Assembly: GCA_040755035.1 (NCBI GenBank)
Contig: JBFMBU010000030.1
Coordinates: forward strand, 41,045-105,044
DNA from: Thermodesulfobacteriota bacterium
GTDB taxonomy: Bacteria > Desulfobacterota > RBG-13-43-22
Reading direction: 5' to 3'
DNA length: 64,000 nucleotides
The translations under genes and the position numbers were made by a program. Below, piece by piece: positions 8,933 to 51,996 of the stretch. The notes below the pieces were generated by a model, which had not been told where the DNA came from, searched no databases, and worked only from the letters and a program-made list of their open reading frames with translations. Position 1 is the first letter of the stretch; each line of letters starts with the position of its first letter.

Positions 8933-8941
8933 CTTTTTCCC

Positions 8942-11079: not shown

Positions 11080-11090
11080 GACACCCCTGA

Positions 11091-14968: not shown

Positions 14969-15020
14969 AGGATTTTCCGACTTTCTACGAAACCATCTTT
15001 AGAAGGGTTAATCGTAGACG

Positions 15021-18986: not shown

Positions 18987-19001
18987 GTTTCCATCCGGAA
19001 A
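18987..19001 (-). promoter_or_regulatory. Copy 1 of the recurrent motif GTTTCCATCCGGAA(A), about 155 nt upstream of the OMP/DUF4139 operon
   Basis: Exact 14-mer shared with 21585-21598 and 27111-27124. Confidence 0.4.
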
Positions 19002-19540
19002 AGATCTTTCCGAATGAAAATGAGTCGGTCCGTTTTTTGCCGCTCTTTACGGATACAACTATTATACCTGCATGGCCTCGTCAATTCTTTTTCAAAGGAA
19101 AGTTTGTGAATAATAACACTTGGTTCATTTATCCAGGATTTACACACTGTAAAAAAAATTGGCATATCCCCGGAGATAAATTTGCCTTTTAAATGATCAA
19201 TAAAGAGCGAAGAAGGTGAAGAAGAAAGGCACTTCTTTTCCTCCCAAATCACAGGGTTAAGAAAAAAAACAGAAAGTGACTCACCTGATTTTACTATTTT
19301 TATCCGAGCAAGTCGGTCTGGTATAATCTTTGCAAAAATAAACTGTAACCCATTCATTTTTAATCCCATTTGTAATCGGATGATGATACTATTTGAGAAA
19401 AGACCATCCCGGACCAGCCGGACCAAAAACGGAATTCCGAAAATACTTCATACGGTCCGGGTAAATTCCGTTTTTAGAAAAAATTCTATACGTAAGTTAC
19501 CGAGAGAGAAAAACGATAAAAATATACCCAGGAGGACATT

Positions 19541-36347: not shown

Positions 36348-36803
36348 TCAGGCCAGGGATCGGCTGTTTTTGATCAATCGTTTGGCCTGATCCACCAGGG
36401 CCTTTTTTTCTTCAGCGGAAAATCCGTCCAGCATGCCCTCCAGACGCCGGTCATGTTCCATTTCGATTTTTCTGAGGGTTTTCTTGCCCTGGGCCGTAAT
36501 TTCCAAAAGGGTGGCCCGCTCGTCCCGGGCGTCGGATTTTCTTAAGATAAATCCCCCCTTTTCCAGACGTTTGGCCAGGCCGGTCATATTGGCACCGGGA
36601 ACCAGCATAATACGGCTGACTTCGGTGATCCGACTTTGGCCGTTGGCCGAGGCGTCCAGGACCCTGAGGATATTGTATTGGGGAAAGGAGAGGTTATATT
36701 TTTTAAAAATCGCGGAAAAGACCCTTTTAAAAGTTTCCGCAGCCCTGATCACCCCCATCAGGACCTTTTCCTCTGGACTAAGATCGCTTCGATAACCGGC
36801 CAT
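36348..36803 (-). CDS. MarR-family transcriptional regulator
   Basis: wHTH MarR-like; start taken at MAGYRSD. Confidence 0.8.
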   Translation of the reverse strand: MAGYRSDLSPEEKVLMGVIRAAETFKRVFSAIFKKYNLSFPQYNILRVLDASANGQSRITEVSRIMLVPGANMTGLAKRLEKGGFILRKSDARDERATLLEITAQGKKTLRKIEMEHDRRLEGMLDGFSAEEKKALVDQAKRLIKNSRSLA

Positions 36804-37035
36804 GGTCTGCCGACTCCTTCCATAATTTTTACTCAGGCAGGGATTATAAGGTAATATAGCAAAAAAAACCTTTAATGGCAAGAAGTAAGAGCCTTGATAT
36901 TACATAAATTGATATTATATAAATTGACATAATTTGTATTTTTTGATAGGAAAACCAAGGTGAATAGATCATAATGAAAAGTCTTAAGACCGAGCCACCG
37001 GCGACCTTAACCCCTGCAACGGAAAGGGAACCACC

Positions 37036-39138
37036 ATGGAAGAAATAAGAAAAGTAAGGACCGTCTGCCGCAGCTGCCACGGCGGGTGCGGGGTAATGGC
37101 CACGGTTAAAAACAACCGGGTGGTCAAAATTGAAGGAGATCCGGATTCCCCCATCAGCTTCGGGACCTTATGCAGCAAGGGCATGGGCATCACTCAGATC
37201 GCCTACCATCCGGACCGCATCCTCCACCCTCTGAAAAAAACCCCCCGGGGTTGGGAGCGGATCACCTGGGATGAGGCCCTGGATACGATAGCGGCAAGTT
37301 TTAAAAAGGTTATCCGGGAATACGGGCCGGAATCCCTTTTCATCGGCCAGGGGACGGGCCGGGATTACGAAAGTCATTTTTCCCGCTTCGGCAATCTCCT
37401 GGGAACCCCCAATGTGTTGACCGCCGGACATATGTGTTATTTGTCCCGCATCGGGGCTTCTTTGATAACCTGCGGCCGTTTTCCGGTCTGCGATTATGAA
37501 GGGGAGCCGAAATGCATCGTCCTCTGGGCCGTCAATCCCTTATGGACCAATCCGGATGAATACAAGGGAGCCGGTTTCTGGCGGGCTTATAAGAAAGGGG
37601 CCAAATTGATCGTCATCGACCCCCGTAAAAATTTTTATACCCGGAAGGCCGACCTCTGGCTCAAACTCCGACCCGGTACCGACGCGGCTTTGGCCATGGG
37701 ATTTCACCAGGTCATCATCGAAGAAGAGCTTTACGACAAAGCGTTCGTAACCCATTACATTCACGGATGGGAAGCCTTCGTGGACAGGGTCAGGGACTAT
37801 CCCCTTTATAAAGTAGAACAGATCACCGGTGTGGATGAAGAGCTGATCCGGGAAGCGGCCAGGGTCTATGCCCGCACCAAACCCGCTGCCATTCATTGGG
37901 GGGTGCCGACCGAGCAGACCATCAACTGCACGGATTTCACCCGGGCGGCTATCGGACTCATGGCCTCCAGCGGTAATCTGGACGCCCCCGGAGGAAATGT
38001 CTTTCACGTTCCCCCCAAGGTCCGTAAGGTATCGGAATTTTCCCGCCATGACGCCCTCTCTCCACAGCAAAGGGCAAAAAGACTGGGGGGCGAGCAATAC
38101 AAATTGGCGGCCCGAATGGCCCTGATCACCCCCAAACCGGCCTGGGAAGCCATGCTGACCGGCAAACCTTATCCCCTTAAAGCCGGCATCTTTGTCGGCA
38201 CCAATCCGGTGATTACCGAGGCCAATGCCAAAACCATCTATGCCGCCCTGCAGAAACTTGATTTTTTGGCCGTCTCTGATTTCTTCCTCACCCCAACGGC
38301 TGAATTGGCTCATATCTTCCTGCCGGCCGGTACCTGGCTGGAGCAGAACCATATGGCCGAAAACTGGAAGTTTCACGGTTATGTCCTGGCCAGGCAAAAA
38401 GTAGTAGAGATCGGTGAATGCTGGCAGGATCATAAAATATTTCAAGAACTGGGCAAACGGATGGGGCAGGAATGGTGGGGCTCGGTGGAAGAGGCTTTGG
38501 ATTATCTTTTGGAACCTACGGGTTTGAACTGGGAACAATTCAAGGAAAAGGGCTGGCTCAAAGGAGAGATGGAATATTACAAATATCGTAAAGGAGGATT
38601 TTCCACCCCCACCCGCAAGGTGGAACTCTATTCCACCACTCTGGAAGACTGGGGCCATGACCCTTTACCTAAATTCACGGAGATTCCGGAAAGTCCTGTC
38701 TCCCGCCCCGACCTGGCCAAAGAGTATCCTTATATCCTCAATGCCGGATTAAGAACCCCGGTCTTTTTCCATTCCGCCAACCGTCAGGTCCCCTGGCTGC
38801 GGGAGATCCGCCCCGACCCGACGGTGGAGCTCCATCCGGATACGGCCAAAAACCATGGGATCAAAGAGGCCGATTGGATCTGGATTGAATCCCCCCGGGG
38901 TCGCGTCAAACAGAAAGTCAAACTCAATGAGGGTATCGATCCGGGCCTGGTGGTGGCCGAACACGGCTGGTGGTTCCCGGAAATCAAAGACCCCGGCCAT
39001 GGCTGGGATGTATCCAATATCAATGTCCTGACCGATGATTCTCATGAGTCCATGGATCCGGTCATGGGCGCGACCAACCTTCGGGTCTTATTATGTAACA
39101 TCGCCCCTTGCGACCAGGATCAGGAGGCCGGATTATGA
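37036..39138 (+). CDS. Molybdopterin (bis-MGD) oxidoreductase catalytic subunit, cytoplasmic (no Tat signal)
   Basis: N-terminal CRSCHGGCGV 4Fe-4S motif, MopB-type domains, 700 aa. Confidence 0.85.
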   Translation: MEEIRKVRTVCRSCHGGCGVMATVKNNRVVKIEGDPDSPISFGTLCSKGMGITQIAYHPDRILHPLKKTPRGWERITWDEALDTIAASFKKVIREYGPESLFIGQGTGRDYESHFSRFGNLLGTPNVLTAGHMCYLSRIGASLITCGRFPVCDYEGEPKCIVLWAVNPLWTNPDEYKGAGFWRAYKKGAKLIVIDPRKNFYTRKADLWLKLRPGTDAALAMGFHQVIIEEELYDKAFVTHYIHGWEAFVDRVRDYPLYKVEQITGVDEELIREAARVYARTKPAAIHWGVPTEQTINCTDFTRAAIGLMASSGNLDAPGGNVFHVPPKVRKVSEFSRHDALSPQQRAKRLGGEQYKLAARMALITPKPAWEAMLTGKPYPLKAGIFVGTNPVITEANAKTIYAALQKLDFLAVSDFFLTPTAELAHIFLPAGTWLEQNHMAENWKFHGYVLARQKVVEIGECWQDHKIFQELGKRMGQEWWGSVEEALDYLLEPTGLNWEQFKEKGWLKGEMEYYKYRKGGFSTPTRKVELYSTTLEDWGHDPLPKFTEIPESPVSRPDLAKEYPYILNAGLRTPVFFHSANRQVPWLREIRPDPTVELHPDTAKNHGIKEADWIWIESPRGRVKQKVKLNEGIDPGLVVAEHGWWFPEIKDPGHGWDVSNINVLTDDSHESMDPVMGATNLRVLLCNIAPCDQDQEAGL

Positions 39139-39587
39139 AAAACAAAACCCTGACCATTTATAAAGAAGATTGCTGCGGCTGTCATGCCTGTGAAGTGGCC
39201 TGTAAACAGGAACATCAGCTCGGGGTCGGCCCTCGCTTGATCCGGGTTAACGAAAAAACGCCTTTCTTTATTCCGATCTATTGTCACCACTGCGCCAAGC
39301 CGCCCTGTCGGGACGTCTGCCCGGTGGAGGCCATTTATCGAAATGACCAGGGGGTGGTCCTTATCAAAGAAGAAGACTGTATCGGCTGCCGGGAATGCCT
39401 GACCGCCTGTCCCTTCGGAGCCATGCAGTTTGATGAGGAAAAGGAGACGGCGGTTAAGTGCGACCTCTGCCTGGACCGGATTCAACAGGGACTGCCCCCG
39501 GCCTGCTCCCAGATCTGTCCCACCCGTTGTATTTTTTGGGGGGAAACGACGGTCCTTTTGGATAAGATGGCCGCTGAACAGGGATAA
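39135..39587 (+). CDS. 4x[4Fe-4S] ferredoxin-type electron-transfer subunit
   Basis: Four Cys clusters; ATGA overlap with the catalytic subunit. Confidence 0.8.
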   Translation: MKNKTLTIYKEDCCGCHACEVACKQEHQLGVGPRLIRVNEKTPFFIPIYCHHCAKPPCRDVCPVEAIYRNDQGVVLIKEEDCIGCRECLTACPFGAMQFDEEKETAVKCDLCLDRIQQGLPPACSQICPTRCIFWGETTVLLDKMAAEQG

Positions 39588-39674
39588 ATCTTTAAGGGTG
39601 GGCAAGAGAAAAGAAGGTGGTTTCTCAAAAATGATCGGGTCCTTCAACCCGGAACAGAGGTCTTAGTTGGCTTT

Positions 39675-39998
39675 TTATAGACTCCGCCCTGAACCCGACA
39701 ACCCTCCTGATTTTTTCAAAATACAACTCCCCGGGTCAAACCGGGCCGCTTTTTTGAAAAAGTGGTTGAAAAATACCGCTCCCAGACCGGCTACGAGGTA
39801 ATAGGCTTTCAGAATCGGTGTTCCATGGATCAGCCCCAAACAAAGAGCCGGTTCCGAAGTCACCTCCCGGATCCTTAAAATATGATAACCCGTATATTCA
39901 ATGCCTAAAAGCGTGGAAAAGTAAGCCAGCCAAACCAAAGACATAAGGGCGGCCACCAGAAATTCCAAAAAGTATTCAAGATAAGTTTTATCTGCCAT
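39675..39998 (-). CDS. Small membrane protein (about 3 TM), function unknown
   Basis: Hydrophobic segments; start taken at MADKTYLEYF. Confidence 0.35.
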   Translation of the reverse strand: MADKTYLEYFLEFLVAALMSLVWLAYFSTLLGIEYTGYHILRIREVTSEPALCLGLIHGTPILKAYYLVAGLGAVFFNHFFKKAARFDPGSCILKKSGGLSGSGRSL

Positions 39999-40206
39999 GA
40001 GCCTCTTGTTGCCTACCCCCGGTGACAATGCCAATCGGGCTTTTTGGCAGGCAGTGTACACTATTCAAAGGGTATTCCAAGATATCTTTCATACCGGATT
40101 CAGGTTAAAAATTCGGGCCGATTAATAAAACTTATGTAATTTAACTTGACAAGTTATTTTGTAAGTTGTATGTAAATATTTACAACTTACCCCTGGACCA
40201 AAGGTC

Positions 40207-40962
40207 ATGCTTAAAAAAATAAAGCGTGCTAACCTCAGTAATCCATCCGATCTACCTTTCCCGGTTTACTACCAGGTCGCTCAACTGATCCGCAATAATA
40301 TCATCAGCGGAACTTGGCTTCCAGGCAGCCGTCTTCCTTCCGAAAATGAATTGAAAGAAAAATATAAAGTCAGTCGGCCCACCATCCGGGTGGCCAAGTC
40401 TATTCTGACCAACGAAGGTTTTATTCACAGTGTCAGGGGTTCAGGCTGCTATATAAAAAACAAAGACACCTGGAAAACCCAGATCCCCACCGTGGATAAC
40501 CTGAATGATATCTTTTACCTCGGATCGAAGCTTTCCTTTAAAATCCTTGAATTCGGGATGGTGGCCAACTCCAAAGAAGTCAAGGAAAACCTCAAAAACG
40601 ATCAGGACCCTTTTGTCTTTCAGATAAAAGGGGTCCGTTGGAGGGAAGACCAACCCCTGTCCAGTGTCACTTATTATTTGCCCTATCGGTTCGGCTCTCG
40701 GATACCCCTGGAACAATTGGATGGAAACCCTTTTATCCCCCAATTTGAGCGCCTGGCCGGTATCCAGGTCATTGAAGGGACGACCAATATTTCCCTGGGA
40801 AAGGCTGATTTTGAAACCGCCGATCACCTGCAAATAAAAAAAGGGGCCCCTATCCTGGCGGTCAAGACCGTTTATCGGGATAATTCGAATCAACTGATTG
40901 AATTTATCATCACCCGTTACAAGGATAAAATACCCTATTCTTTCAGATCCAAAAGGTCTTAG
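40207..40962 (+). CDS. GntR-family transcriptional regulator (HTH plus UTRA effector domain)
   Basis: N-terminal GntR HTH (LPSENELKEKYKVSRPTIRVA) and UTRA-like C-terminus. Confidence 0.85.
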   Translation: MLKKIKRANLSNPSDLPFPVYYQVAQLIRNNIISGTWLPGSRLPSENELKEKYKVSRPTIRVAKSILTNEGFIHSVRGSGCYIKNKDTWKTQIPTVDNLNDIFYLGSKLSFKILEFGMVANSKEVKENLKNDQDPFVFQIKGVRWREDQPLSSVTYYLPYRFGSRIPLEQLDGNPFIPQFERLAGIQVIEGTTNISLGKADFETADHLQIKKGAPILAVKTVYRDNSNQLIEFIITRYKDKIPYSFRSKRS

Positions 40963-41117
40963 GAGATTTTCTTAACCTTCTCTTTTAAAGCATTCTTTCC
41001 GGTAGTGAAAAAAACCGGGGGCATAGGCGCCATTAGCCGGCTCTCTTTATTTAAAATTTCCTTTTAGTTTTTTACTGATACCGCGCTGGCAACGAAAAAA
41101 AGGCAAGGAGCGGCAAA

Positions 41118-42668
41118 ATGAGTTGGGAAAAGGAAGTTAAAGAAATCACCCGGCGGATGGAAATTTCCAAACAAATGGGGGGGCCGGAAAACGTGGCCCG
41201 CCATCATCAGTCCGGAAAATTGACGGTCAGGGAACGCATCGACCAGGTCCTCGATCAGGGGAGTTTTCGGGAGATCGGAGGCCTCACCGGCTCGGCCAAA
41301 TATGATGCCCAGGGGAACCTGCTGGATTTTACACCGGCCAATATAGTCATCGGCAGCGGTCGGATCAACCAGCGGAGGGTCGTGGTCTCCGGAGAAGACT
41401 TCACCATCCGGGGAGGTTCATCGGAGAGCACCGTTTCGGAAAAATGGATCTGGGCCGAACGCCTGGCCGCAGAGATGCAGATTCCTATGGTCCGTCTGGT
41501 GGATACGGCCGGAGGCAGCGTAAAACTGCTGGAGAAGGCGGGAGCAACCAAACTGCCGGGTTATCCCAACAATGATTCCCGGAACTTATTGGGCCTCATT
41601 CCGGTAGTGGCCGCAGCGCTTGGTTCTGTTGCCGGCCTGGGGGCGGCTCGAGTGGTGGGGGCCCATTTTTCAGTCATGGTCAAAGAAAAAAGCCAAGTCT
41701 TCGCCGCCGGACCTTTTGTCGTCACGCCGGCCACCGGAGAAAATCTGACCAAGGAGGATCTTGGGGGGTACAAAGTCCATACCAGGGGCAGCGGGGTCGT
41801 TGACAACGAGGCCGAGAGTGAAGCCGATGCCTTCATTCAGATCCGCACTTTTCTCTCTTTCATGCCCCAGAATGCCTTTCAGCTTCCTCCCCGGGAAATT
41901 CCCACCGATGATCCCAATCGAAGAGAGGAATCGCTTCTCTCGGCCATTCCCAATGACCGCCGAAAGAGTTACAACAGTCGCAAAATCCTCAAAGCGGTCT
42001 TTGATCACGATTCCCTTTTCGAAATCGGACGCTATCAAGGCCCTTCGATCATTTCCATGTTCGGGAGATTAAACGGCTATCCGGTTGGTATCATGGCCAG
42101 TGATCCCAACTATCTGGGAGGGGCCTTAACCGCCCAGGCTGCTGAAAAAATGACCCGTTTTGTGGACCTCTGCGACAGTTTTCATATTCCCATCGTAAAT
42201 TTCGTGGATCAGCCCGGGGTGATGATAGGACGGGAGGCGGAGAAACAGGGGACCATTCGAAAAGCGATCCGGGCCCTCGAGGCCATCGAACAGACCCAGA
42301 TACCCTGGGTGGCCATCCTGGTTCGAAAGGCCTTCGGTGTCGCCGGATCGGGTTATGGGCGGCAAAGGGACCTTAACCTGCGCTATGCCTGGCCCTCCGG
42401 CTTTTGGGGTTCGATTCCGGTCGAGGGAGGGGTGCAGGCCGCCTATTGGAAGGAAATTCAGGCCGCCGAAGACCCTGAGGCGCGATTGAAAGAACTGATC
42501 AAGTATTACCATGATTTTGAATCGCCTTTTCGGACAGCCGAGCGTTTCGGCGTTCAGGATATCATCGACCCCCGCGAAACCCGTCCGATCCTCTGCGATT
42601 GGGTGGAACAGGCATACGAAGTACTGCCCCGGCAACTCGGCCCGGTATTTCGAACCATGCGCTGCTGA
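41118..42668 (+). CDS. Acyl-CoA carboxyltransferase (propionyl-CoA carboxylase beta / methylmalonyl-CoA decarboxylase alpha family)
   Basis: Length 516 aa, two crotonase-like CT halves, oxyanion-hole glycines. Confidence 0.85.
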   Translation: MSWEKEVKEITRRMEISKQMGGPENVARHHQSGKLTVRERIDQVLDQGSFREIGGLTGSAKYDAQGNLLDFTPANIVIGSGRINQRRVVVSGEDFTIRGGSSESTVSEKWIWAERLAAEMQIPMVRLVDTAGGSVKLLEKAGATKLPGYPNNDSRNLLGLIPVVAAALGSVAGLGAARVVGAHFSVMVKEKSQVFAAGPFVVTPATGENLTKEDLGGYKVHTRGSGVVDNEAESEADAFIQIRTFLSFMPQNAFQLPPREIPTDDPNRREESLLSAIPNDRRKSYNSRKILKAVFDHDSLFEIGRYQGPSIISMFGRLNGYPVGIMASDPNYLGGALTAQAAEKMTRFVDLCDSFHIPIVNFVDQPGVMIGREAEKQGTIRKAIRALEAIEQTQIPWVAILVRKAFGVAGSGYGRQRDLNLRYAWPSGFWGSIPVEGGVQAAYWKEIQAAEDPEARLKELIKYYHDFESPFRTAERFGVQDIIDPRETRPILCDWVEQAYEVLPRQLGPVFRTMRC

Positions 42669-42689
42669 TCCGGTAGGAAATGGACGATA

Positions 42690-44243
42690 ATGAATCCCAA
42701 TTTGCTTTATACCTTTGCCCTTGAACGCTACCCGGAGCAGACCGCCATCATTTTCAACGAACAGCGGCTGACCTTTCGCCAGTTTCAGTGCCGCTCCAAT
42801 AAGCTCGGCAACGCCCTTCTGAATCTTGGACTTAAAAAGGGCCAAAAGGTGGCCGTTTTGTTGCAAAACAGCCTCGAACTGGCTGAAAGCCTGACCGGCA
42901 TATCCAAGGCCGGACTGGCTATCGTTCCCCTGAATGCCCGGCAAAGCGGTCCGGAACATGCCTATATTTTACATGATGCCGAGGCTGACGCCCTGATCGT
43001 CGGGGAATCCTTCTTTGAGGTTGTCGAACCCTTTTTATCCGATATCCCTCGCTTGAAACACCTCATCCGGGTAGGTGGGGGGAAAAATGGATTGGACTAC
43101 CACGAACTGGTTGATCCTCAATCAGAAACCCTCCCTGAAATAGAAGTCCAGGAAGAGGATATCGACCGTATTCATTATACCTCCGGGACCACGGGAAAAC
43201 CCAAAGGGGTGGTGGGAACCTTCGGGATTACTTATCATCGCCTGGTCAACGCCTGGATCAACCTGGATCAGCCGATAGGACCGGGCGATATCAATCTGAA
43301 CATCGGCCCCCTGACCCATGCCGCCGGGTTCATGATGAGCATCTACTCCCTGCGCGGGGCGGCCAATGTCATCCTGGATAAATTTGATATCGATCTGGTC
43401 CTGCAAACCATAGAAAAAGAAAAGGTGACCGCGGTCCTGTTCATTCCGACCATGATGAATATGATCCTGATGCATCCCCATTTGCATCGCTATGACCTGA
43501 GCAGCCTCAAGCGCATCTGGTACGGAACGGCGCCCATGGCCCCGGAAAAAATCAAGGAAGGGATCAAGATCTTCGGCAATATTTTTCGGCAAAATTACGG
43601 ATTAACCGAGGCCCCGCAGCCGATCCTTTTTTTAGGGCCCGAAGATCATATCATCGAAGGAACCGAGAAAGAAAAGAGACGGCTGGCTTCGGCCGGAAAA
43701 CCGGCCCTGGGGGTGGCGGTCAAAATCATCAAGGAGGATAATACGGAAATCAAACCCGGGGAAATCGGGGAGATCACCCTGCGGACCATCCAGGTGATGA
43801 AAGAATACTGGAAAAACCCCCAAGCCACGGCCGAAGCCTTCCGCGGGGGTTGGTTTCACACCGGAGATATGGCCACGGTCGACGATGACGGGTTCATCTA
43901 TATCATGGATCGCAAGCACGACATGATCATCAGCGGTGGTTTCAATATCTATCCCCGCGAGGTGGAGGACGCCATTATGACCCATCCCCTGGTGGCCGAA
44001 GCGGCGGTGATCGGTGTGCCGGATGAGGTTTGGGGGGAATCGGTCAAGGCCTTTGTGGTTTCCAAACCGGACAGTTCCGTCTCAACAGAGGAGATCATAG
44101 AAGTTTGCACAAGGCAACTGGCCGGCTATAAAAAACCCAAAAGCATTGAATTTGTAGACGACCTCCCCAAAAACGCCTATGGTAAAGTGCTCCGTAAAAA
44201 GCTGAAGGAACCTTTTTGGCAGGGACGGGAACGAAGGGTGTAG
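42690..44243 (+). CDS. AMP-dependent acyl-CoA synthetase/ligase
   Basis: YTSGTTGKPKGV motif; 517 aa. Confidence 0.85.
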   Translation: MNPNLLYTFALERYPEQTAIIFNEQRLTFRQFQCRSNKLGNALLNLGLKKGQKVAVLLQNSLELAESLTGISKAGLAIVPLNARQSGPEHAYILHDAEADALIVGESFFEVVEPFLSDIPRLKHLIRVGGGKNGLDYHELVDPQSETLPEIEVQEEDIDRIHYTSGTTGKPKGVVGTFGITYHRLVNAWINLDQPIGPGDINLNIGPLTHAAGFMMSIYSLRGAANVILDKFDIDLVLQTIEKEKVTAVLFIPTMMNMILMHPHLHRYDLSSLKRIWYGTAPMAPEKIKEGIKIFGNIFRQNYGLTEAPQPILFLGPEDHIIEGTEKEKRRLASAGKPALGVAVKIIKEDNTEIKPGEIGEITLRTIQVMKEYWKNPQATAEAFRGGWFHTGDMATVDDDGFIYIMDRKHDMIISGGFNIYPREVEDAIMTHPLVAEAAVIGVPDEVWGESVKAFVVSKPDSSVSTEEIIEVCTRQLAGYKKPKSIEFVDDLPKNAYGKVLRKKLKEPFWQGRERRV

Positions 44244-44291
44244 GCAGGAAGGTGGTCAGATACGATTTTGGCCTCAAAAAGAAGCCCTCTT

Positions 44292-44771
44292 ATGAAAAAA
44301 ATAAAAGCCCGAATCAAGCCTGACCTGATCGTTTATGGCATCCTCACTGCCTTTGCAGCCGTCATGCTTTTCCCTTCCCTAGACCTTGGATTAGGGGAAA
44401 AAGGAAACCTTGGACCGGGGCTTCTTCCTTTTATCGCCTCTATTTGTATTTTGGTCACAGGCTCTACGCTGGGCATTTCAAGTTTACTGAAAAAAGCAAG
44501 GGCCGGTCCTTCCCCTGAGAACGATGTCCTTGGCCGTAAAGAATGGCTCCAGGCTGCAGGAATTTTGTTCATTTTCTCCCTATGGCCCCTTTTGGTGGGA
44601 TTTGCCGGTTATATCTGGCCGACCCTTTTGGTGTCCTTCGGGTTGGCCAAAGCAGTTGGGTACAAATCCTGGAAGCAACCCGTCATATTCAGTGTGCTGA
44701 TTACCGCCTTTATCTGGCTTATTTTCGGAGTTCTATTTCATTTGGATTTGCCGTCAGGGTTTTCTTTTTAA
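44292..44771 (+). CDS. tctB: Tripartite tricarboxylate transporter small subunit TctB
   Basis: Four TM, about 160 aa, directly upstream of tctA. Confidence 0.6.
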   Translation: MKKIKARIKPDLIVYGILTAFAAVMLFPSLDLGLGEKGNLGPGLLPFIASICILVTGSTLGISSLLKKARAGPSPENDVLGRKEWLQAAGILFIFSLWPLLVGFAGYIWPTLLVSFGLAKAVGYKSWKQPVIFSVLITAFIWLIFGVLFHLDLPSGFSF

Positions 44772-44869
44772 ACCCCCTGGGGCCGGCCGAAGGCTGAACC
44801 TGGAATCCGACTTTAGAACCAAAGGTTTTCCTAACTACCCATTGGCTCGGTATCATTTGGGGAGGGATC

Positions 44870-46369
44870 GTGTCCGGAATAGAATATCTCTGGGATGGAT
44901 TTCAAGTCGCCCTTGCCCCGGCAAATTTTTTAATGTGTCTGGTCGGGGTGATCCTGGGAACTCTGGTAGGGGTGTTACCGGGGCTGGGCCCGATAGAGGC
45001 CATGGCCATTATGTTGCCGATCAGTATTCATTATGGGCCTCTGGCGGGACTGATCCTGCTGGCCGGGGTCTGGTATGGGGCCCAGTATGGTGGATCGACC
45101 ACCTCTATTCTGGTCAATATCCCCGGAGAAGCCTCCTCGGTGATTACCACTATTGAAGGGTATCAGATGACCAGAAAGGGCCGGGCCGGGGCGGCATTGG
45201 CTGTTTCGGCCGTCGGGTCCTTTTTTGCCGGTACTCTCGGAATTGTCATCCTGCAGTTATTTACCCCACCCTTAGCCGCTGCGGCCCTCTCCTTCGGGCC
45301 GCCGGAATATCTGGCCATCATGTTATTAGCTTTTGTCGCCCTTTCGACCCTTTCCGGGGATAATCCTTTTAAAGGAACCTTGATGATCGCCCTGGGAGCC
45401 TTTCTGAGCACGGTCGGAATAGACCGGATTGCCGGGGTTCAACGGTTTACCATGGGGATTCCGAATATGATGTACGGAATCCATTTTGTTCCTGTTGCCG
45501 TCGGCTTATTTGGAATTGCCGAGGTAATTCGGCTGGCACTGAAACCCTATACCCCCACCTCCCTCAAATCCGTCCGCTTCCGAGAACTCTATCCGAACCG
45601 GGAAGAAATCCGACGGTCCATTATCCCTATTATTCGCGGTTCTTTCATCGGCTCACTTTTCGGATTGTTGCCCGGCACACCTGCCGTTCTGGCCTCGTTC
45701 ACCTCGTACAGTGTTGAAAAAAGCCTTTCACCAAAAAAGGAGGAATTCGGCCATGGCGCCATCGAAGGCGTGGCCGGGCCGGAGTCAGCCAACAATTCGG
45801 CTGTGGTGCTGGCCCTGGTCCCTCTTCTCTGCTTGGGCATCCCTTTCGCCCCCGTGGCCGCACTGCTTCTGGCCGGCCTTCAATTGCACAATATAACTCC
45901 AGGTCCCTTGTTTATTCAGGAAAACCCTTCTATTTTTTGGGGTTTTGTCGCGGCCATGTACCTGGGAAACTTTCTTCTCCTGGTTTTGAATCTCCCCCTT
46001 GTCGGTCTTTTTGCCCGCGTGGCCACCCTCCGGCCCCGGGTATTAATACCTATTATCGGAATCCTCTGTTTATTAGGGGCCTACATGACCCGCATGGCCT
46101 TATTCGATGTCTGGGTCATGATCGCAGCAGGTATCGCCGGCTTTTTTCTGAACCACCTGGGATTTCCTTTGATCCCTCTAATTCTCGGAATGGTTCTCGG
46201 AAATATCTTGGAAGATAATCTCCGTGTGACCACCCAGTGGCTGAATGGAGACTTCGCTCTCCTCTTAACCCGTCCCATTGCCCTGGCCATCCTGGCCCTG
46301 ATACCCATTTATATCCTTTTCATCCGTTTGGCGGGTAAAAAGGTCCTTAGGAGCGGCATCAAGGACTAA
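44870..46369 (+). CDS. tctA: Tripartite tricarboxylate transporter large permease TctA
   Basis: Length 499 aa, polytopic, TctA-like. Confidence 0.85.
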   Translation: MSGIEYLWDGFQVALAPANFLMCLVGVILGTLVGVLPGLGPIEAMAIMLPISIHYGPLAGLILLAGVWYGAQYGGSTTSILVNIPGEASSVITTIEGYQMTRKGRAGAALAVSAVGSFFAGTLGIVILQLFTPPLAAAALSFGPPEYLAIMLLAFVALSTLSGDNPFKGTLMIALGAFLSTVGIDRIAGVQRFTMGIPNMMYGIHFVPVAVGLFGIAEVIRLALKPYTPTSLKSVRFRELYPNREEIRRSIIPIIRGSFIGSLFGLLPGTPAVLASFTSYSVEKSLSPKKEEFGHGAIEGVAGPESANNSAVVLALVPLLCLGIPFAPVAALLLAGLQLHNITPGPLFIQENPSIFWGFVAAMYLGNFLLLVLNLPLVGLFARVATLRPRVLIPIIGILCLLGAYMTRMALFDVWVMIAAGIAGFFLNHLGFPLIPLILGMVLGNILEDNLRVTTQWLNGDFALLLTRPIALAILALIPIYILFIRLAGKKVLRSGIKD

Positions 46370-46393
46370 TTAACGTTTTGAAACTCAGTTTGT

Positions 46394-46513
46394 TTGTGTC
46401 ATTTCCGGTCGATCGAGCCGCTCGACGGTGTCGAGCTTTTGAAAAGGCTCCTCGTCAGGAGCCGTAAGTCGATCCTTAGTAAAGGTCCCCCTGCGGAGAC
46501 CGGATCGAAACAC
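46394..46513 (+). other. Second GTCGA-rich palindromic intergenic element (related to 14829-14968), includes hairpin ggctcctcgtcaggagcc
   Basis: Shares the TGTCATTTC and CGGTCGAT blocks with the first element, a ccgg(a)tcgaaa near the 3' end, and multiple short IRs. Confidence 0.35.
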
Positions 46514-46667
46514 CTGGATGCAAGTTTGGAGCTCTTGCCAGGACCCCTTTTTTATAAAGGAGCTAAGGGTCCGGGATTGGACAACTCTTAAAAAAAGATC
46601 CCCAGTCCCTCTGGGTCAATATAAAAAAAGACACTTAAAACGTAAAAAACAAAAGGAGGTTTCAAAA

Positions 46668-47627
46668 ATGAAAAAATTTATTTTTGTTTTGATCCTGACT
46701 GTTTTTTGTTTCGGACTGTCGCAAACCGGGGTTTGGGCCTATCCGGAAAAACCGATCAAATTGATCATTGGCTATGAGGCCGGGAGCGCGACGGATCTGA
46801 TCGGGCGGACTTTTTTTAAACTTATGGAGAAAGAGCTGGGGCAGCCCTTTATGATTGTTAATAAACCAGGAGCCGCCAGTGCCCTGGCCTTAAGGGAACT
46901 CCTGGATGCCAAAGCCGACGGCTACACCCTGGGAATGAGCTGTTCGGTCAACGTGCTAAAAATTATGGGGCAGCTCCCCAAGACCCATCACGATTTTGAT
47001 GTGATCGGAATTCCTTTGCTCACCGGATCGGTATTAGCCGTACCGGCCAAAAGTCCTTTCCAATCCACAAAAGAGCTGGTCGATTATGCCCGGAGCAATC
47101 CGGAAAAACTCCGCCTGTCCACCACTTCAAAAGGAGCGGTGTTCTGGATTCACTCCCGGTACTTTGAACGACTGACTGGAGCCAAGTTCAACCTGATCAG
47201 CAACCCCGGCGGAGCCAGTTTCATCGCCACTCAATTAGGGGGAGCCCATGCCGACTTGGGATTTGCAGCCTACCGGCCTCTTCAGGGGCAGATAAAAGCC
47301 GGAAATATACGCCTGCTCGGGGTAACTACGGAAAAACGGGTGGCGGCCTTTCCCGATTTGCCGACCTTGAAAGAGCAGGGATACAACATGATTGTATCAG
47401 GCTGGGCCTCGATTCTGGCCCCCAAGGGTCTCCCGCCGGACATCTACAAAAAACTGGTTGCGGCCCATGCCAAATTGGTGGGAATAACGGAGTGGCAGGA
47501 TTTTTGTAATGCCACGGGGAGTGTCGGCTATCCGGAGTACACCGGGGAAGGGGCCATCAAATTTATGGATCAGGATGCCGAAATTCAAAAGCCGATCCTG
47601 GAGGAAATTGGAGCGGTAAAAAAATAA
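46668..47627 (+). CDS. tctC: TctC / Bug-family periplasmic substrate-binding protein
   Basis: Signal peptide; strong RBS aaaaggagg; Bug-like fold sequence. Confidence 0.8.
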   Translation: MKKFIFVLILTVFCFGLSQTGVWAYPEKPIKLIIGYEAGSATDLIGRTFFKLMEKELGQPFMIVNKPGAASALALRELLDAKADGYTLGMSCSVNVLKIMGQLPKTHHDFDVIGIPLLTGSVLAVPAKSPFQSTKELVDYARSNPEKLRLSTTSKGAVFWIHSRYFERLTGAKFNLISNPGGASFIATQLGGAHADLGFAAYRPLQGQIKAGNIRLLGVTTEKRVAAFPDLPTLKEQGYNMIVSGWASILAPKGLPPDIYKKLVAAHAKLVGITEWQDFCNATGSVGYPEYTGEGAIKFMDQDAEIQKPILEEIGAVKK

Positions 47628-47674
47628 CAGGATGTGGAAAAACTCATTTTTTAAGGAAAGGAATTGTTTTCCCA

Positions 47675-49210
47675 ATGAGCCACGCTGAAAAATTAGAACT
47701 TTTCGAAAAGAAGAGAAAACACCAGGTAGGCATGGGCGGGCCCAAGAAACTTGAGGCCCGCAAAGCCGCCGGGAAGCTGAACGTTCGGGAAAGGATCCAA
47801 TACTTTTTTGATCCAGGTTCATTTCAGGAGCTGGGGCTCTTTACCCATTCGGAATGGCCGGGGCAGGAAGAGCGTTCCCCCACCGACGGTAAACTCAGCG
47901 GCAGCGGTTTGGTCCAGGGGCGGACAGTGCTCACCGTTGCCAATGATATGACGGTCCTGGGGGCCTCCAGTGCCTCGACCAACATGAAAAAGATCGACTA
48001 CGTCCGATCCCTCAGTTGTGAAAAGGGGCTCCCTCTGGTCTTTCTGGGGGAATCGACCGGATCGCGCATGCCCGATTCCATGGGGGCCTTTGGCATGGGG
48101 CACGGCGGACAGAACCCGGCCCAGTACCGCCGGCTGCGGGAAGCCCCCTGGTTATCGGTGCTTCTTGGTCCCTGCTATGGCAGTTCAAGTTGGTACACGG
48201 CCTTGTCCGATATCAGTGTCATGCAAAAAGGTTCGATCATGGCCGTTTCCAGTCCCAAAGTGACCCAGCTGGCCACCGGGGAGAACACCCCTTCTGAAGC
48301 GTTGGGCGGCTGGAGGGTGCACGCGGAAATTACCGGAATGATCGACGCCGTCGGGGACAGCGAAGAACAATGTCTGGACCTGGCCAAACGGTTTTTAAGC
48401 TATCTGCCAACCAACGCGCAAGAACGCCCGCCGAAGACAGCGGTCCCGGAAGGATCGGGCCAGGATATGGACCGCATTTTAGAATTTCTTCCGGAACAGA
48501 CCTCCAAGGCCTATGATATGGAAAAAATCATCCGGACCATCATCGATCTCCAGTCTTTCCAGGAATTGAAAGCCCGGTTCGCCAGGCCCTGCATCACTGC
48601 TTTGGCCAGACTGAACGGGGAGGCGGTGGGGATCGTGGCCAATAATCCGCTCTATGGGGCCGGGGCCCTGACCGCTGACTGCTGTGACAAAATCACCGGT
48701 TTTCTGGTCCTCTGCGATTCCTACAATATCCCTATTATCCAGTTCGTGGATAATCCCGGGTTCATGATCGGAAAGGCCGGGGAATATAAAAAAGTCGTGG
48801 GAAAGATCATGAACTGGATGAATGCCCTTTCCCTGGTTACCGTTCCGGTTCTGACCGTGGTCATCGGAAAGACGTATGGCCAGGCCTATCTGAATATGGG
48901 GGGCGGGAAATATTCCAGTGCCTTTGTGGCCTGGCCCACGGCCGAAATCAGCTTTATGGGTCTCGAACCGGGAATCAATGTGGTCTACAATATAAAAAAG
49001 ACTGAAGACCCGGAAAAATTCCAGGAACTGCTCGATCAGATGGGGAAGGCTACCGAACCTTATGATGCCGCCGGTATTTTCGGGCTGACCGATGTCATCC
49101 ATCCGGCGGAAACCCGTGATTACCTGACAAAGATGCTGGATCTGCATTACAACCGTTTTTCCGGGGGGATCGGTCGCCATTTGCTCCACAACTGGCCGAC
49201 CACCTACTAA
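47675..49210 (+). CDS. Second acyl-CoA carboxyltransferase paralog
   Basis: Length 511 aa, CT family, paralog of 41118..42668. Confidence 0.85.
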   Translation: MSHAEKLELFEKKRKHQVGMGGPKKLEARKAAGKLNVRERIQYFFDPGSFQELGLFTHSEWPGQEERSPTDGKLSGSGLVQGRTVLTVANDMTVLGASSASTNMKKIDYVRSLSCEKGLPLVFLGESTGSRMPDSMGAFGMGHGGQNPAQYRRLREAPWLSVLLGPCYGSSSWYTALSDISVMQKGSIMAVSSPKVTQLATGENTPSEALGGWRVHAEITGMIDAVGDSEEQCLDLAKRFLSYLPTNAQERPPKTAVPEGSGQDMDRILEFLPEQTSKAYDMEKIIRTIIDLQSFQELKARFARPCITALARLNGEAVGIVANNPLYGAGALTADCCDKITGFLVLCDSYNIPIIQFVDNPGFMIGKAGEYKKVVGKIMNWMNALSLVTVPVLTVVIGKTYGQAYLNMGGGKYSSAFVAWPTAEISFMGLEPGINVVYNIKKTEDPEKFQELLDQMGKATEPYDAAGIFGLTDVIHPAETRDYLTKMLDLHYNRFSGGIGRHLLHNWPTTY

Positions 49211-49235
49211 GTCCCTCTAAAGAAAAGGAGAGAAT

Positions 49236-49343
49236 ATGGAAATGACGATATTGAGGAATACTGACGGGACCTTGAAGGGGATAAAGGTGGCGAAAAGGGA
49301 GTCGGTTGAGGCCGACCAGGTCTTGTTTATTATTGAATAGAAT
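49236..49343 (+). pseudogene. Remnant of a biotinyl (BCCP-like) domain, truncated immediately before the EAMKM biotin-attachment motif
   Basis: Strong RBS aaaggagag. The peptide ...GTLKGIKVAKRESVEADQVLFIIE-stop closely matches the biotinyl consensus ...GtvxkilVkeGDxVeaGQxLliiEAMKM. Confidence 0.45.
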
Positions 49344-49388
49344 TCCTGTTGTAGAATAAATTCTATCCACTTAGCCTTGAATTCTATT
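49336..49388. promoter_or_regulatory. 10-bp inverted repeat AATAGAATTC / GAATTCTATT flanking an inner palindrome TAGAAT-aa-ATTCTA
   Basis: Seen directly; overlaps the stop of the biotinyl remnant, about 45 nt upstream of the hydratase start. Confidence 0.4.
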
Positions 49389-49429
49389 CTTAAGGTGCTA
49401 TGCCTGTTTCAGGATTACGGGGGAGCGGC

Positions 49430-50206
49430 ATGAGTCTTTTGTATGAAAAAAAAGAAAAAATTGCGATCCTAACACTTAACCGTCCTGAGGTCCTTAATGC
49501 CATAAACCCGGATATGGCGGATAAACTGTTAAAGGCCTGGTTGGATTTCTCGAATGATCCTGAACTCTTGGTGCTGATCATAACCGGTGCGGGAGACAAG
49601 GCCTTTTGTGTCGGCGCGGATATCAAGGACCGGGATCAAACCGGGCAGGATCCCCATCTTTCCCAGTTCTGGGGAGCGGGATTGAAAACCCCTATGCGAG
49701 GGATTGAAGTCAATAAACCGGTAATCGCAGCGATTAACGGTTATTGTCTGGGTGGAGGATTGGAATTGGCCCTGGTTTGTGACATCCGTATCGCCTCTGA
49801 AAATGCCCGTTTCGGACAACCGGAAATTAAAAGAGGCATCTTCCCCGGTATGGGCGCCACACAAAGGCTTCCGCGGTCCATGCCCTACAATCTGGCGGCC
49901 GAGCTTCTGCTGACCGGTGAACAAATCGATGCCCGCGAGGCCTACCGAATCGGTTTAATCAACCGTGTCCTACCTCTTGAACAGTTGATGAAGGCCGCCT
50001 GGGCCCTGGCGGAAACCATCAGCGATAATGCCCCCTTGGCCCTGAGAGCGGCCAAAGAGGCTTTGCTCAGAAGTTATGATCTGCCCCTGGAGCAAGGGCT
50101 GCGGCTGGAAGGCCTGCTTCGAAAAATTATCGGGGAAACCGAGGATGCCGGGGAAGGCCAGCGTGCCTTTATAGAACGGAGAAAACCGGAATTTAAAAAC
50201 CGGTGA
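49430..50206 (+). CDS. Enoyl-CoA hydratase/isomerase (crotonase family)
   Basis: Crotonase-fold motifs (AAINGYCLGGGLELAL); RBS ggggag. Confidence 0.85.
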   Translation: MSLLYEKKEKIAILTLNRPEVLNAINPDMADKLLKAWLDFSNDPELLVLIITGAGDKAFCVGADIKDRDQTGQDPHLSQFWGAGLKTPMRGIEVNKPVIAAINGYCLGGGLELALVCDIRIASENARFGQPEIKRGIFPGMGATQRLPRSMPYNLAAELLLTGEQIDAREAYRIGLINRVLPLEQLMKAAWALAETISDNAPLALRAAKEALLRSYDLPLEQGLRLEGLLRKIIGETEDAGEGQRAFIERRKPEFKNR

Positions 50207-50577
50207 ATGAGACAGGCTTCTGGAATATCACCCCTCCCTCTGACCCCTTTACCCGCCCGGAAGCGTTTACACGGGTTCTTAAAAAATCTTCCCTGCCTTT
50301 TTAACCCCTTCTTCCAATTTCACCCTCTCAGACTCCTTTCCCGAAACTAGGCAGCACCCCGGTTTATTTCAAAACAGGCCATCCGGGAACCAATTCCTCA
50401 GAACAGGGAAGATAAAGGAGGCCACTGAGTTGACCGGCGCTTTCGAACCTGATATATCAAATAAGAAAAGAGGTTGTAAAAAAAATCCTGCGGGGAGGCT
50501 ATAAACGGTTAAAAAGAAGTAAGCGCGTTTACCGGGCCTGAGAGGGGAACTTGTTTCAAAAAATGAGGGAGGGGAAC

Positions 50578-51996
50578 ATGGAAGATCCATCCGAAGAGAA
50601 AAAAAGTGCGGACCCGTTCAAACCCTACCAGGGAAGGTTTGAAAGTTATCAGAAACTGCCGGAAAAAGGGCGTGACCCGAACGACCTTTTCCGGGAACTG
50701 ACGATCATGGCCGAAGAAGAAAACAGCCAATGGAAAACAGGCCGGATCTCGGGCACCTTTTATCATGGCGGGGACGAACACCGGGCCTTTCTGAACAAGG
50801 TTTTCTCCCTCTTCTCCCATGCCAATACCATCCAATTCGATTTGTGTCCGAGCATGTTCAAAATGGAAAGCGAAATCATCGCCATGACCGCGGCCATGCT
50901 TCATGCGGATGCGGTCAGGCATCATAATCCCTCGGACCAGGTCTGCGGAACCGTTACCTCCGGTGGCACGGAAAGCATCCTCATGGCCATGAAGGCCTAC
51001 CGGGACCGGGCCCGGGCCGAAAAAAATATCACCGTTCCGGAGATCATCGTTCCCCATACTGCCCATCCGGCCTTCGATAAGGCGGGAGAATATTTCGGCA
51101 TTAAAATGACTCATATCCCGGTTTCACCACCCGATTTCCTCGTAGATCCCCGCCTCGTGGAAGAGCGCATCACGGCCGACACCGTGGCCCTGGTCGGCAG
51201 CGCCGGCAATTACCCCTATGGACTGATCGACCCCCTAAATCGCCTGTCCGAGATCGCCCTCGCCCATGATATCTGGATGCATGTCGACGGCTGTCTGGGC
51301 GGCTTCATCCTGCCCTGGCTGGAAAAACTGGGTTACCCTATACCAACCTTTGACTTTCGCCTGCCGGGAGTCACTTCCATTTCGGCCGATACCCATAAAT
51401 ATGGATTCGCCCTGAAAGGGACCTCGGTGGTCCTCTACCGCAACAACACCTTCCGCCGCTATCAGTATTTTGCCGTTCCGGACTGGCCCGGGGGATTATA
51501 TGCCTCACCTACCACGGCCGGAAGCCGGTCCGGCGGCCTGACCGCCGCCACCTGGGCGGCCATGATTTATTTAGGGGAAGAGGGCTATTTGAAGGCCGCC
51601 AAAGCCCTGATGGAGGTGGCTGAGGCCATTAAGACCGGTATTAAGGAAATTCCGGAACTGGTCCTGATCGGTGACCCCACTTTCGTCATCAGTTTCCTCT
51701 CCGAAACCGTCGATGTCTATCATGTCAATGATTTCATGAAAACTCGAGGCTGGCGGTTTAATGTCCTGCAACTGCCCCAGGCCCTGCATTTCTGCCTGAC
51801 CCTGCCCCAGACCTCCGTCGATGGAATCGCTGAGCGGTTTATATCTGATTTGAAGGAAGGGGTGGGCTATGCCAAAAGGATGGCCGGAACCGTTGCCCAG
51901 ACTACGGCCCTCTACGGCCTGGCCGGGACCATGGAAGGCAATCAACAGGTGAGGGAAATGGTCCTGGGCGTCTTTGATTATTTATATTCGGTTTAA
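50578..51996 (+). CDS. Group II PLP-dependent decarboxylase/lyase (sphingosine-1-phosphate-lyase / glutamate-decarboxylase-like)
   Basis: SADTHKYGFALKGTSVVLYRN PLP-lysine motif; RBS gggagggg. Confidence 0.75.
   Translation: MEDPSEEKKSADPFKPYQGRFESYQKLPEKGRDPNDLFRELTIMAEEENSQWKTGRISGTFYHGGDEHRAFLNKVFSLFSHANTIQFDLCPSMFKMESEIIAMTAAMLHADAVRHHNPSDQVCGTVTSGGTESILMAMKAYRDRARAEKNITVPEIIVPHTAHPAFDKAGEYFGIKMTHIPVSPPDFLVDPRLVEERITADTVALVGSAGNYPYGLIDPLNRLSEIALAHDIWMHVDGCLGGFILPWLEKLGYPIPTFDFRLPGVTSISADTHKYGFALKGTSVVLYRNNTFRRYQYFAVPDWPGGLYASPTTAGSRSGGLTAATWAAMIYLGEEGYLKAAKALMEVAEAIKTGIKEIPELVLIGDPTFVISFLSETVDVYHVNDFMKTRGWRFNVLQLPQALHFCLTLPQTSVDGIAERFISDLKEGVGYAKRMAGTVAQTTALYGLAGTMEGNQQVREMVLGVFDYLYSV

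Follow-up and report, generated by a model that had tools for sequence, protein, structure and literature searches.

We describe here a gene module carried by a 64,000-nucleotide stretch of DNA from a Thermodesulfobacteriota bacterium (assembly GCA_040755035.1, contig JBFMBU010000030.1, positions 41,045–105,044 of the forward strand); "the window" denotes this whole 64 kb, and coordinates given without a locus label refer to it. At the centre of the region studied (36348–51996, ~15.6 kb) lies a GntR-controlled operon (40146–50206) that encodes a GntR/UTRA regulator, a carboxyltransferase (CT1), an acyl-coenzyme A (acyl-CoA) ligase, the three components of a tripartite tricarboxylate transporter (TctB-TctA-TctC), a second carboxyltransferase (CT2), the relic of a small biotin carrier and an enoyl-CoA hydratase (ECH). 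The module is conserved and matches no characterised pathway that we found. The reading we favour – and to which we give about an even chance – is that it takes up an acid, activates it with CoA and subjects the thioester to biotin-dependent carboxyl transfer with partners encoded in trans.

Gene calls were taken from a listing of open reading frames and from Pfam and NCBIfam profile scans; related loci (L001–L042) were gathered from GTDB genomes, JGI metagenomes and exact-protein look-ups, and were mapped with BLAST. An earlier interpretation made from the letters alone (the sequence-only reading) had listed the genes of the region, and every one of them was verified by Pfam where it had been placed. 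Its proposal that the carboxyltransferases, ligase, transporter, relic and hydratase make up one CoA-dependent organic-acid module is borne out by recurrence of the core set in related loci. Its extension of that locus to the whole region is not: the region is three independent units rather than one pathway, as is evident from the promoter and operator that the module owns and from synteny in L042, where the counterparts of the genes upstream of the window's module sit among unrelated genes. That reading had looked to a characterised operon with the same gene set as the evidence that could overturn it; no characterised operon that we found matches, and a literature search on carboxyltransferase, CoA ligase, malonate, transcarboxylase and glutaconyl-CoA themes found no published description of the module.

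A conserved module under GntR control

The operon opens with a promoter and operator (40146–40187, plus strand). A −35 element, TTGACA (40146–40151), is followed by the palindrome AGTTGTA-N10-TACAACT (40164–40187), which is perfect and overlaps the predicted −10 element. In the window the palindrome is found a single time, and in 100 shuffles not at all; moreover, both it and the −35 element are invariant in alignments of the window with L001, L002 and L003. In L001, L002, L003, L025, L039 and L040 a core form, TTGTA-N10-TACAA, precedes the first gene of the module by no more than 70 bp, and it is found also where CT1 is that first gene. Given that the conserved promoter and operator stand upstream of the regulator gene (40207–40962, plus strand; HutC subfamily; Pfam GntR 1.2e-18, UTRA 5.8e-17), the transcription unit starts at GntR. 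All this matches the picture expected of an autoregulated repressor, which is the likely role of the GntR/UTRA protein. General scans of the window were uninformative as a whole: promoter-like sigma-70 sites occurred at chance level, and terminator-like sites numbered 40 against 27.9 ± 5.7 expected, ~2 standard deviations above chance.

Where CT1 identity is 60% or higher, loci have in common a set of GntR, CT1, the ligase, a carboxylate importer and CT2, and the module was found in many Desulfobacterota metagenome genomes. Apart from the window, 9 or more independent loci have this core set, so that its clustering exceeds chance. A GntR gene is part of every related module, in one of two orders (GntR-CT1-ligase or CT1-GntR-ligase), and the ligase gene is always present; CT2 is present in nine loci (the window, L001, L003, L004, L013, L017, L021, L025 and L041), and L040 retains a fragment of it. 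The window, L002, L003 and L020 have TctBAC as their importer, and L001, L004, L013, L017, L021, L025, L039, L040 and L041 have the TRAP system DctPQM. A hydratase gene follows the module in 5 of the 13 loci having enough flanking sequence (the window, L013, L025, L040 and L041). In L017, a complete Desulfobacterales genome, no downstream enzyme is present and unrelated genes flank the module on either side, which indicates that the module is self-contained. A variant seen in L018/L024 (12372–13241), L039 (12364–13224) and L023 has, between GntR and ligase, an Amidohydro_2 gene – a member of a decarboxylase/lactonase superfamily – and sometimes adds a gene for a beta-lactamase-family hydrolase; CT2 is absent from this variant within the available sequence.

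More distant versions (L034, L035, L037 and L038) have a GntR/FCD regulator, a TAXI-TRAP importer, CT2-like proteins of 57–59% identity and CT1-like proteins of 44–47%, with CoA activation assigned to a 457-amino-acid AMP-ligase or to an enzyme of the acetyl-CoA hydrolase/transferase family. A Dehalococcoidia locus places two family III CoA-transferases between two carboxyltransferases. The CoA-activating enzyme thus takes the form of a long AMP-ligase, the 457-amino-acid AMP-ligase, an acetyl-CoA hydrolase/transferase, family III CoA-transferases or a SucCD-like enzyme, and TctBAC, DctPQM and TAXI-TRAP – all of them carboxylate importers with a solute-binding protein – interchange. These substitutions of importer and activating enzyme leave one scheme constant: import of an acid, activation with CoA, and a carboxyltransferase.

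The ligase of the window (42690–44243, plus strand; Pfam AMP-binding 1.1e-76 and AMP-binding_C) is of the AMP-forming type and passes NCBIfam PRK06187, its best model, with 501 bits against a cut-off of 476; against PRK07514, the MatB equivalog, it reaches 291 bits, below the cut-off of 558. Its nearest solved relatives are FadD8, feruloyl-CoA synthetase and MenE, and no MatB structure is among its PDB matches at E ≤ 1e-60. TctB (small membrane subunit, 44268–44771; Pfam TctB 3.9e-14), TctA (large membrane subunit, 44870–46369; Pfam TctA 2.4e-145) and TctC (periplasmic solute-binding protein, 46518–47627; Pfam TctC 1.5e-37), encoded on the plus strand, are all present and adjacent, as befits a tripartite tricarboxylate transporter; TctA is 87% identical in L003, and TctB has orthologues in L002, L003 and L020. 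In the PDB, TctC matches Bug/TctC proteins with a range of carboxylate ligands, each match being weak (1e-37 or worse). The hydratase (a crotonase; 49400–50206, plus strand; Pfam ECH_1 2.3e-71) carries both catalytic glutamate motifs in its translation, GGGLELAL and FGQPEIKRG.

Several features of individual loci deserve mention. The L040 copy of the module is decaying: its DctP is split in two open reading frames (14075–15113) and only a 179-amino-acid carboxyltransferase fragment is left, downstream of the hydratase (18809–19348). L001, the closest relative, with a CT1 of 90% identity, has two insertions between GntR and CT1 (6664–9295): a split gene for an alpha/beta-hydrolase and one for a family-5 solute-binding protein. 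DDE transposases lie directly upstream of the L013 module (7329–9734), and in the window the region is followed farther downstream by transposase genes of the IS110 family and of IS200-like type (56279–57403 and 60653–61645), all of which fits placement in variable genome regions. FCD-type modules are regularly followed by a TauE/TSUP membrane protein and usually then by a hexapeptide-repeat protein of ~175 amino acids, presumably gamma-carbonic-anhydrase/PaaY-like (L034, 18045–19331; L035, 17574–18864; L037, 16419–17192; L038, 16085–18289 and 20744–21536). On the opposite strand beside the L034 module (512–6305) are genes for an AMP-ligase, two HGD-D proteins and two BcrAD/BadFG ATPases; the set resembles a class I aryl-CoA reductase or 2-hydroxyacyl-CoA dehydratase, a hint that the context in that genome is one of aromatic or 2-hydroxy acids.

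Two carboxyltransferase clades and a biotin carrier

CT1 (516 amino acids, 41118–42668, plus strand; Pfam Carboxyl_trans E 8.5e-88) and CT2 (511 amino acids, 47675–49210, plus strand; E 2.3e-94) each have two crotonase-like domains in one chain, the Carboxyl_trans domain spanning residues 29–492 and 30–493, respectively. Their best PDB matches, to which both align full length, are the beta subunit of propionyl-CoA carboxylase (PCC; 1vrg, 2.8e-83 for CT1 and 1.1e-86 for CT2) and the 12S transcarboxylase subunit (1on3, 1.3e-73 and 5.3e-83). The two proteins are 32% identical to one another and 31–36% identical to 12S; indeed, CT1-type, CT2-type and canonical PCC/12S sequences form three roughly equidistant clades (29–37% identity). 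The beta subunit of methylcrotonyl-CoA carboxylase (MCC) is more distant (~175 bits, against ~283–294 for PCC beta and 12S), as is that of geranyl-CoA carboxylase. Of the families the sequence-only reading had proposed for comparison, PccB, together with 12S, is nearest among solved structures; GcdA scores only ~95 bits (E 5e-26) for CT1 and was not recovered for CT2 in the PDB comparison, and against the MmdA model TIGR01117 CT1 and CT2 reach 342 and 350 bits, below a cut-off of 998.8. Both fall below the cut-off of every curated NCBIfam model, an exact-sequence look-up of CT1 returned no match, and the sources examined gave neither protein a functional name beyond generic ones. Each clade comprises well over 100 metagenome clusters at 90% identity, and CT1-like relatives extend to other phyla. 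The neighbours of distant CT1-like genes are mixed – M20 peptidase, epimerase, octopine dehydrogenase, amidohydrolases and CobW – and share no theme.

A distinguishing feature of both clades is the sequence around the oxyanion holes, which are made by backbone amides. Neither CT1 nor CT2 has the canonical motifs (A-G-G-A in the N domain, Y-G-G-A/S in the C domain). AGGA is replaced by AGLG in the CT1 clade and by YGSS (in longer form YGSSSWY) in the CT2 clade, YGGA by FGVAG and by YGQA (YGQAYLNMG), and a third motif, canonically AWPSAEIAVMG, reads AWPSGxWGS and AWPTAxISFM; every clade keeps its own version. Measured against L001, L002 and L003, dN/dS is 0.04–0.06 for CT1 and 0.07–0.08 for CT2, values that point to functional genes under strong purifying selection rather than to decay. 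Across CT1, CT2 and the ligase together the range is 0.04–0.11, which leaves no place for the suggestion, made from the sequence alone, that the enzymes are being remodelled: only the carrier has decayed.

The carrier relic is encoded between CT2 and the hydratase (49236–49340, plus strand; 34 amino acids; Pfam Biotin_lipoyl positions 41–73 of 73, E 5e-4). Its open reading frame has a ribosome-binding site, and a stop codon precedes the ATG by 6 codons. The product matches in register the C-terminal half of a 71-amino-acid carrier that is intact in L034 (45% identity over 33 residues), starting just after the biotinyl Lys37 of that carrier; the score was reached by none of 20,000 shuffles. Both the N-terminal half and the biotinyl lysine are missing. 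The "biotinyl remnant" of the sequence-only reading is thus real: it is a true relic that cannot be biotinylated and that descends from a carrier of the L034 type.

No replacement for it was found nearby. Six-frame motif and tblastn searches of the 64-kb window recovered neither a biotin carboxylase signature nor an intact biotinyl domain, and the signature ERDCSxQRR is absent from the window and all 42 loci (43 sequences, ~700 kb). Pfam detected no biotin-related or pump-subunit domain among ten flanking genes; among the scanned window genes and the ten Pfam-annotated loci (L017, L018 and L034–L041) there is neither an OAD_beta membrane subunit nor a 5S subunit (HMGL-like plus PYC_OADA), and those loci contain no Biotin_carb/CPSase_L_D2 domain. 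A lack of biotin carboxylase, intact carrier and pump subunit in cis, as read from the letters alone, is therefore supported.

An intact carrier domain with the (E/A)MKM motif is not found in the window, and among the loci only L007, L034 and L037 have one. In L034 the 71-amino-acid carrier follows the transporter and accompanies both a CT2-like (57%) and a CT1-like (46%) protein; in L037 a carrier of the same length immediately precedes the CT2-like gene; and in L007 one of ~70 amino acids has a SucC-like gene on one side and a SucD-like gene on the other, with a CT1-like gene coming next. The carboxyltransferases beside these carriers bear the same clade-specific motifs as those of the window, and from this we conclude that the unusual motifs are compatible with the use of biotin. 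Given the carriers of these distant modules, dependence of the family on biotin is most likely. In the simplest account the family routinely relies on partners encoded elsewhere, and the cis carrier became dispensable in this lineage. Of the two options raised by the sequence-only reading, partners encoded elsewhere is accordingly the one best backed by the related loci; its term "biotin-less" describes the absence of an intact carrier in cis, but sits poorly with intact carriers beside carboxyltransferases of the same motifs. The L007 locus is gammaproteobacterial and has, in a row (7739–11557), a SucC-like ATP-grasp protein, the biotinyl protein (ESMKME), a SucD-like CoA-binding subunit and the CT1-like protein; amidase, amidohydrolase and Amidohydro_2 genes surround it, with no biotin carboxylase present.

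Mechanism and competing explanations

According to the reading we favour, TctBAC would import a carboxylic acid that is hydrophilic, a di- or tricarboxylate being the most likely, and the AMP-forming ligase would turn it into a CoA thioester. CT1 and CT2, acting as enzymes of the 12S/PccB type, would then shift a carboxyl group between the acyl-CoA and protein-bound biotin, and the product would pass to the hydratase and to general beta-oxidation. The ancestral module would have had its own carrier of ~71 amino acids; with that carrier decayed here, a replacement would be supplied from elsewhere in the genome, and the biotin cycle could be completed by a biotin carboxylase, by a membrane decarboxylase or by the second carboxyltransferase as acceptor site, encoded elsewhere.

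The most likely direction is net decarboxylation of a carboxy-acyl-CoA. This is the more parsimonious option because modules such as that of L017 have no enzyme for a carboxylated product, whereas a decarboxylated acyl-CoA enters general metabolism. Two classes of ester would fit as substrate, the 2-carboxy or malonyl type and the vinylogous 4-carboxy-2-enoyl or glutaconyl type. Resemblance of the carboxyltransferases to alpha-carboxylating enzymes and the analogy with the rhizobial malonate operons MatR-MatABC and MatPQMAB (PMC5237526) favour the former; the recurrent adjacent hydratase, in keeping with the sequence glutaconyl-CoA to crotonyl-CoA to 3-hydroxybutyryl-CoA, favours the latter.

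The Mat operons combine a GntR-type regulator, a decarboxylase, an AMP-forming synthetase and a dicarboxylate importer, of which there is a TRAP variant (PMC5237526), and their logic matches that of the module one to one, TRAP importer variant included. The module differs in having CT-fold proteins in place of a MatA/malonyl-CoA decarboxylase-family enzyme, in lacking a MatB equivalog and in often having an attached hydratase. The Na+-translocating decarboxylases GcdABCD, MmdABCDE and MadB-F offer a second comparison: they, too, use a carboxyltransferase and a small carrier without a carboxylase for the anaerobic decarboxylation of carboxy-acyl thioesters, and the product of Gcd feeds a crotonase. 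Unlike them, the module has no beta or delta subunit in cis in the Pfam-annotated loci and has two carboxyltransferase paralogues, and similarity to GcdA is weak. On this analysis the module may be regarded as a hybrid of the Mat malonate operon and the carboxylase-less biotin systems that does not qualify as a member of either.

Five observations weigh against the favoured reading. A carrier in cis is missing from most Desulfobacterota modules and is a relic here, so that biotin dependence has possibly been lost. Both clades change the second glycine of each canonical oxyanion motif. CT1 occurs without CT2 in L018, L023 and L039, and a CT2-like protein without a CT1-like one in L037, from which it follows that a CT1-CT2 complex is not obligatory. 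The PDB matches of the ligase, of TctC and of a module DctP are weak or generic and give no hint of the substrate. Finally, the greater closeness of the carboxyltransferases to PCC beta and 12S than to MCC beta or GcdA sits badly with the glutaconyl-type option.

The first two of these observations fit an alternative that we regard as possible, if unlikely: that CT1 and CT2 are direct, biotin-independent acyl-CoA decarboxylases that work through a crotonase-type oxyanion hole, the carrier having decayed because it was not needed. Such a role would accord with the absence of a carrier from most close modules, with non-canonical oxyanion motifs that are conserved in each clade and with the self-contained nature of the L017 module. 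A precedent exists in MdcD-MdcE of malonate decarboxylase, a CT-fold pair that decarboxylates a malonyl thioester, malonyl-ACP (acyl carrier protein), without biotin (PMC5534430). However, MdcD and MdcE are half-size proteins, whereas CT1 and CT2 are full two-domain proteins with carriers in related modules, and similarity to MdcD is negligible (NCBIfam NF005530, 37.5 against a cut-off of 228). Direct decarboxylation also leaves unexplained why two full-length, constrained paralogues are retained, and must contend with the intact carriers directly beside same-motif carboxyltransferases in L007, L034 and L037.

Carboxylation rather than decarboxylation is the subject of a further alternative, in which CT1 and CT2 carboxylate an (enoyl-)acyl-CoA at the expense of ATP with a carboxylase and carrier supplied in trans, and the hydratase acts next. 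A carboxyltransferase followed by a hydratase is the gene logic of the methylcrotonyl-CoA and geranyl-CoA carboxylase pathways (LiuBCD/AtuCEF), and the order in the window is alike. Sharing of one alpha subunit among several beta subunits is known from actinobacteria: AccD4 and AccD5, chains of both of which are held in PDB 9t97, are paralogous full-length beta subunits that work with a biotin subunit encoded elsewhere (AccA3), as would those of the module. The hexapeptide-repeat protein of FCD-type modules, if gamma-carbonic-anhydrase-like as we take it to be, would fit as well. But the actinobacterial enzymes are biosynthetic, ATP-dependent and canonical in their motifs, whereas the importer, ligase and repressor give the module a catabolic context. 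No lyase, mutase or epimerase is present for a carboxylated product, modules like L017 have no downstream enzyme of any kind, the 71-amino-acid carriers have no domain for docking a biotin carboxylase, and none of the 43 sequences scanned contains the carboxylase signature. We consider this explanation improbable.

We are similarly doubtful of an acyl-CoA:acyl-CoA transcarboxylase, in which one carboxyltransferase would load the carrier with CO2 taken from the substrate's CoA ester and the other would pass it to acetyl- or propionyl-CoA, saving the ATP cost of carboxylation. The model here is the methylmalonyl-CoA:pyruvate transcarboxylase of Propionibacterium (12S/5S/1.3S), with homologues in Geobacter and Desulfobulbus, which like the module has a 12S-type carboxyltransferase and neither carboxylase nor pump; ancestral versions of the module also had a small free-standing carrier. 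The architectures run parallel, L034 has exactly two different carboxyltransferases and a 71-amino-acid carrier with no other biotin machinery, and both carboxyltransferases are strongly constrained. For Geobacter, energy-saving transcarboxylation has been proposed, and GcdA without pump subunits has been discussed (PMC2996986). The module differs, however, in having a second 12S-type carboxyltransferase instead of 5S, altered oxyanion motifs, a carrier that has decayed in the window and linkage with genes for transport, CoA ligation and GntR-type regulation. Modules with a carrier and a single carboxyltransferase (L007, L037), modules with CT1 only (L039) and loss of the carrier from most two-carboxyltransferase modules, that of the window included, all tell against it, and we know of no biochemical precedent for two 12S-type carboxyltransferases sharing one carrier.

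A related and equally speculative thought, to which we would assign a small probability, is that CT1, CT2 and the ~71-amino-acid carrier, intact in L034, represent a new soluble biotin enzyme built from two 12S-type carboxyltransferases and one minimal carrier. Were this so, the enzyme, with no carboxylase, 5S subunit or pump, would act either as a transcarboxylase between two acyl-CoAs or as a soluble acyl-CoA decarboxylase that depends on biotin, and in anaerobes it would couple the catabolism of imported di- or tricarboxylates to the making of malonyl- or methylmalonyl-CoA at no cost in ATP.

Returning to biotin-dependent carboxyl transfer with partners in trans, the significance of the module lies in CT1 and CT2 as two deep uncharacterised clades tied to a portable operon for import, CoA activation and repression, and only sporadically to a minimal carrier. 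Biotin enzymes that need no biotin carboxylase are few, and the module could add a new architecture to them. Defining its substrate and the biotin cycle behind it would close a gap in what is understood of carbon metabolism among the sulfate reducers of sediments and groundwater, and the conserved operator and the solute-binding proteins provide direct experimental handles on the inducing acid.

Neighbouring units

Upstream of the operon lie a MarR regulator (36348–36881, minus strand; Pfam), a molybdenum- or tungsten-bis(pyranopterin guanine dinucleotide) (Mo/W-bisPGD) enzyme (37036–39138, plus strand; Pfam Fe4S4, Molybdopterin and Molydop_binding) and a four-cluster ferredoxin subunit with 18 cysteines (39108/39135–39587, plus strand; Pfam Fer4_11). 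The start of the ferredoxin gene is overlapped by the Mo-enzyme gene. These genes form an independent conserved trio and are no part of the module. In L042 (9281–12558) an 88% orthologue of the Mo enzyme stands with MarR and the FeS subunit among unrelated neighbours, with no carboxyltransferase module, and the enzyme's family is far more conserved than the carboxyltransferases: identity is 74–89% over more than 120 clusters, Syntrophorhabdaceae and Bacillota metagenome-assembled genomes among them, the 120th match still reaching 74%. A terminator-like hairpin after the ferredoxin gene (39730–39745) lends weak support to a unit boundary. A minus-strand open reading frame in this interval (39675–40061, 128 amino acids) has neither a Pfam match nor a homologue in the loci and is probably spurious.

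The best PDB match of the Mo enzyme is acetylene hydratase (2e7z, 418 bits). In acetylene hydratase a catalytic aspartate stands beside the second cluster cysteine (C-x-x-C-D); the window enzyme reads CRSCHGGC against CQSCDINC in 2e7z, histidine replacing aspartate, while the cysteine metal ligand (HMC) is kept. Acetylene hydratase is, moreover, a monomer that has no FeS subunit, whereas the window enzyme has a translationally coupled ferredoxin subunit. Its Fe4S4 motif begins at residue 11, with no signal peptide and no room for a twin-arginine translocation (Tat) signal, which agrees with the cytoplasmic location previously proposed for it.

Downstream, a pyridoxal phosphate (PLP) enzyme (50551–51996, plus strand) is separated from the hydratase gene by a 344-bp gap and is absent from all related modules. 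Presented in the sequence-only reading as a decarboxylase or lyase, it is better described as a sphingosine-1-phosphate-lyase homologue (Burkholderia 5k1r, 8.7e-158 over residues 23–457; Symbiobacterium 3mad, 1.8e-145), and it does not belong to the carboxyltransferase operon. A PLP gene in L037 was considered as a link to the module and rejected, the pair being only 23% identical. A convergent FGGY sugar kinase gene (52053–53606) closes the region; genes flanking it in the window (Pfam, ten genes) encode acetyl-CoA synthetase, thiolase, sensor kinases, MFS transporters and transposases.

That the Mo enzyme with its ferredoxin, the carboxyltransferase module and the PLP enzyme all act on one substrate, as the sequence-only reading had it, we consider very improbable and largely refuted by synteny: the genes are co-directional and Mo-bisPGD enzymes occur near the module in three other loci, but those enzymes are not orthologous, the trio stands alone in L042, the module owns a conserved promoter and operator, and the PLP gene is non-syntenic elsewhere. 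The three Mo-bisPGD enzymes are found no farther than 10 kb from the module, in L002 (6845–8941), L034 (1–437) and L041 (3880–6789) – by a rough estimate more often than chance – and were rejected as orthologues of the window enzyme at 26–41% identity. The L041 example is a 969-amino-acid ferredoxin-Mo fusion, co-directional and downstream of CT2-like and GntR genes with which it apparently shares one operon.

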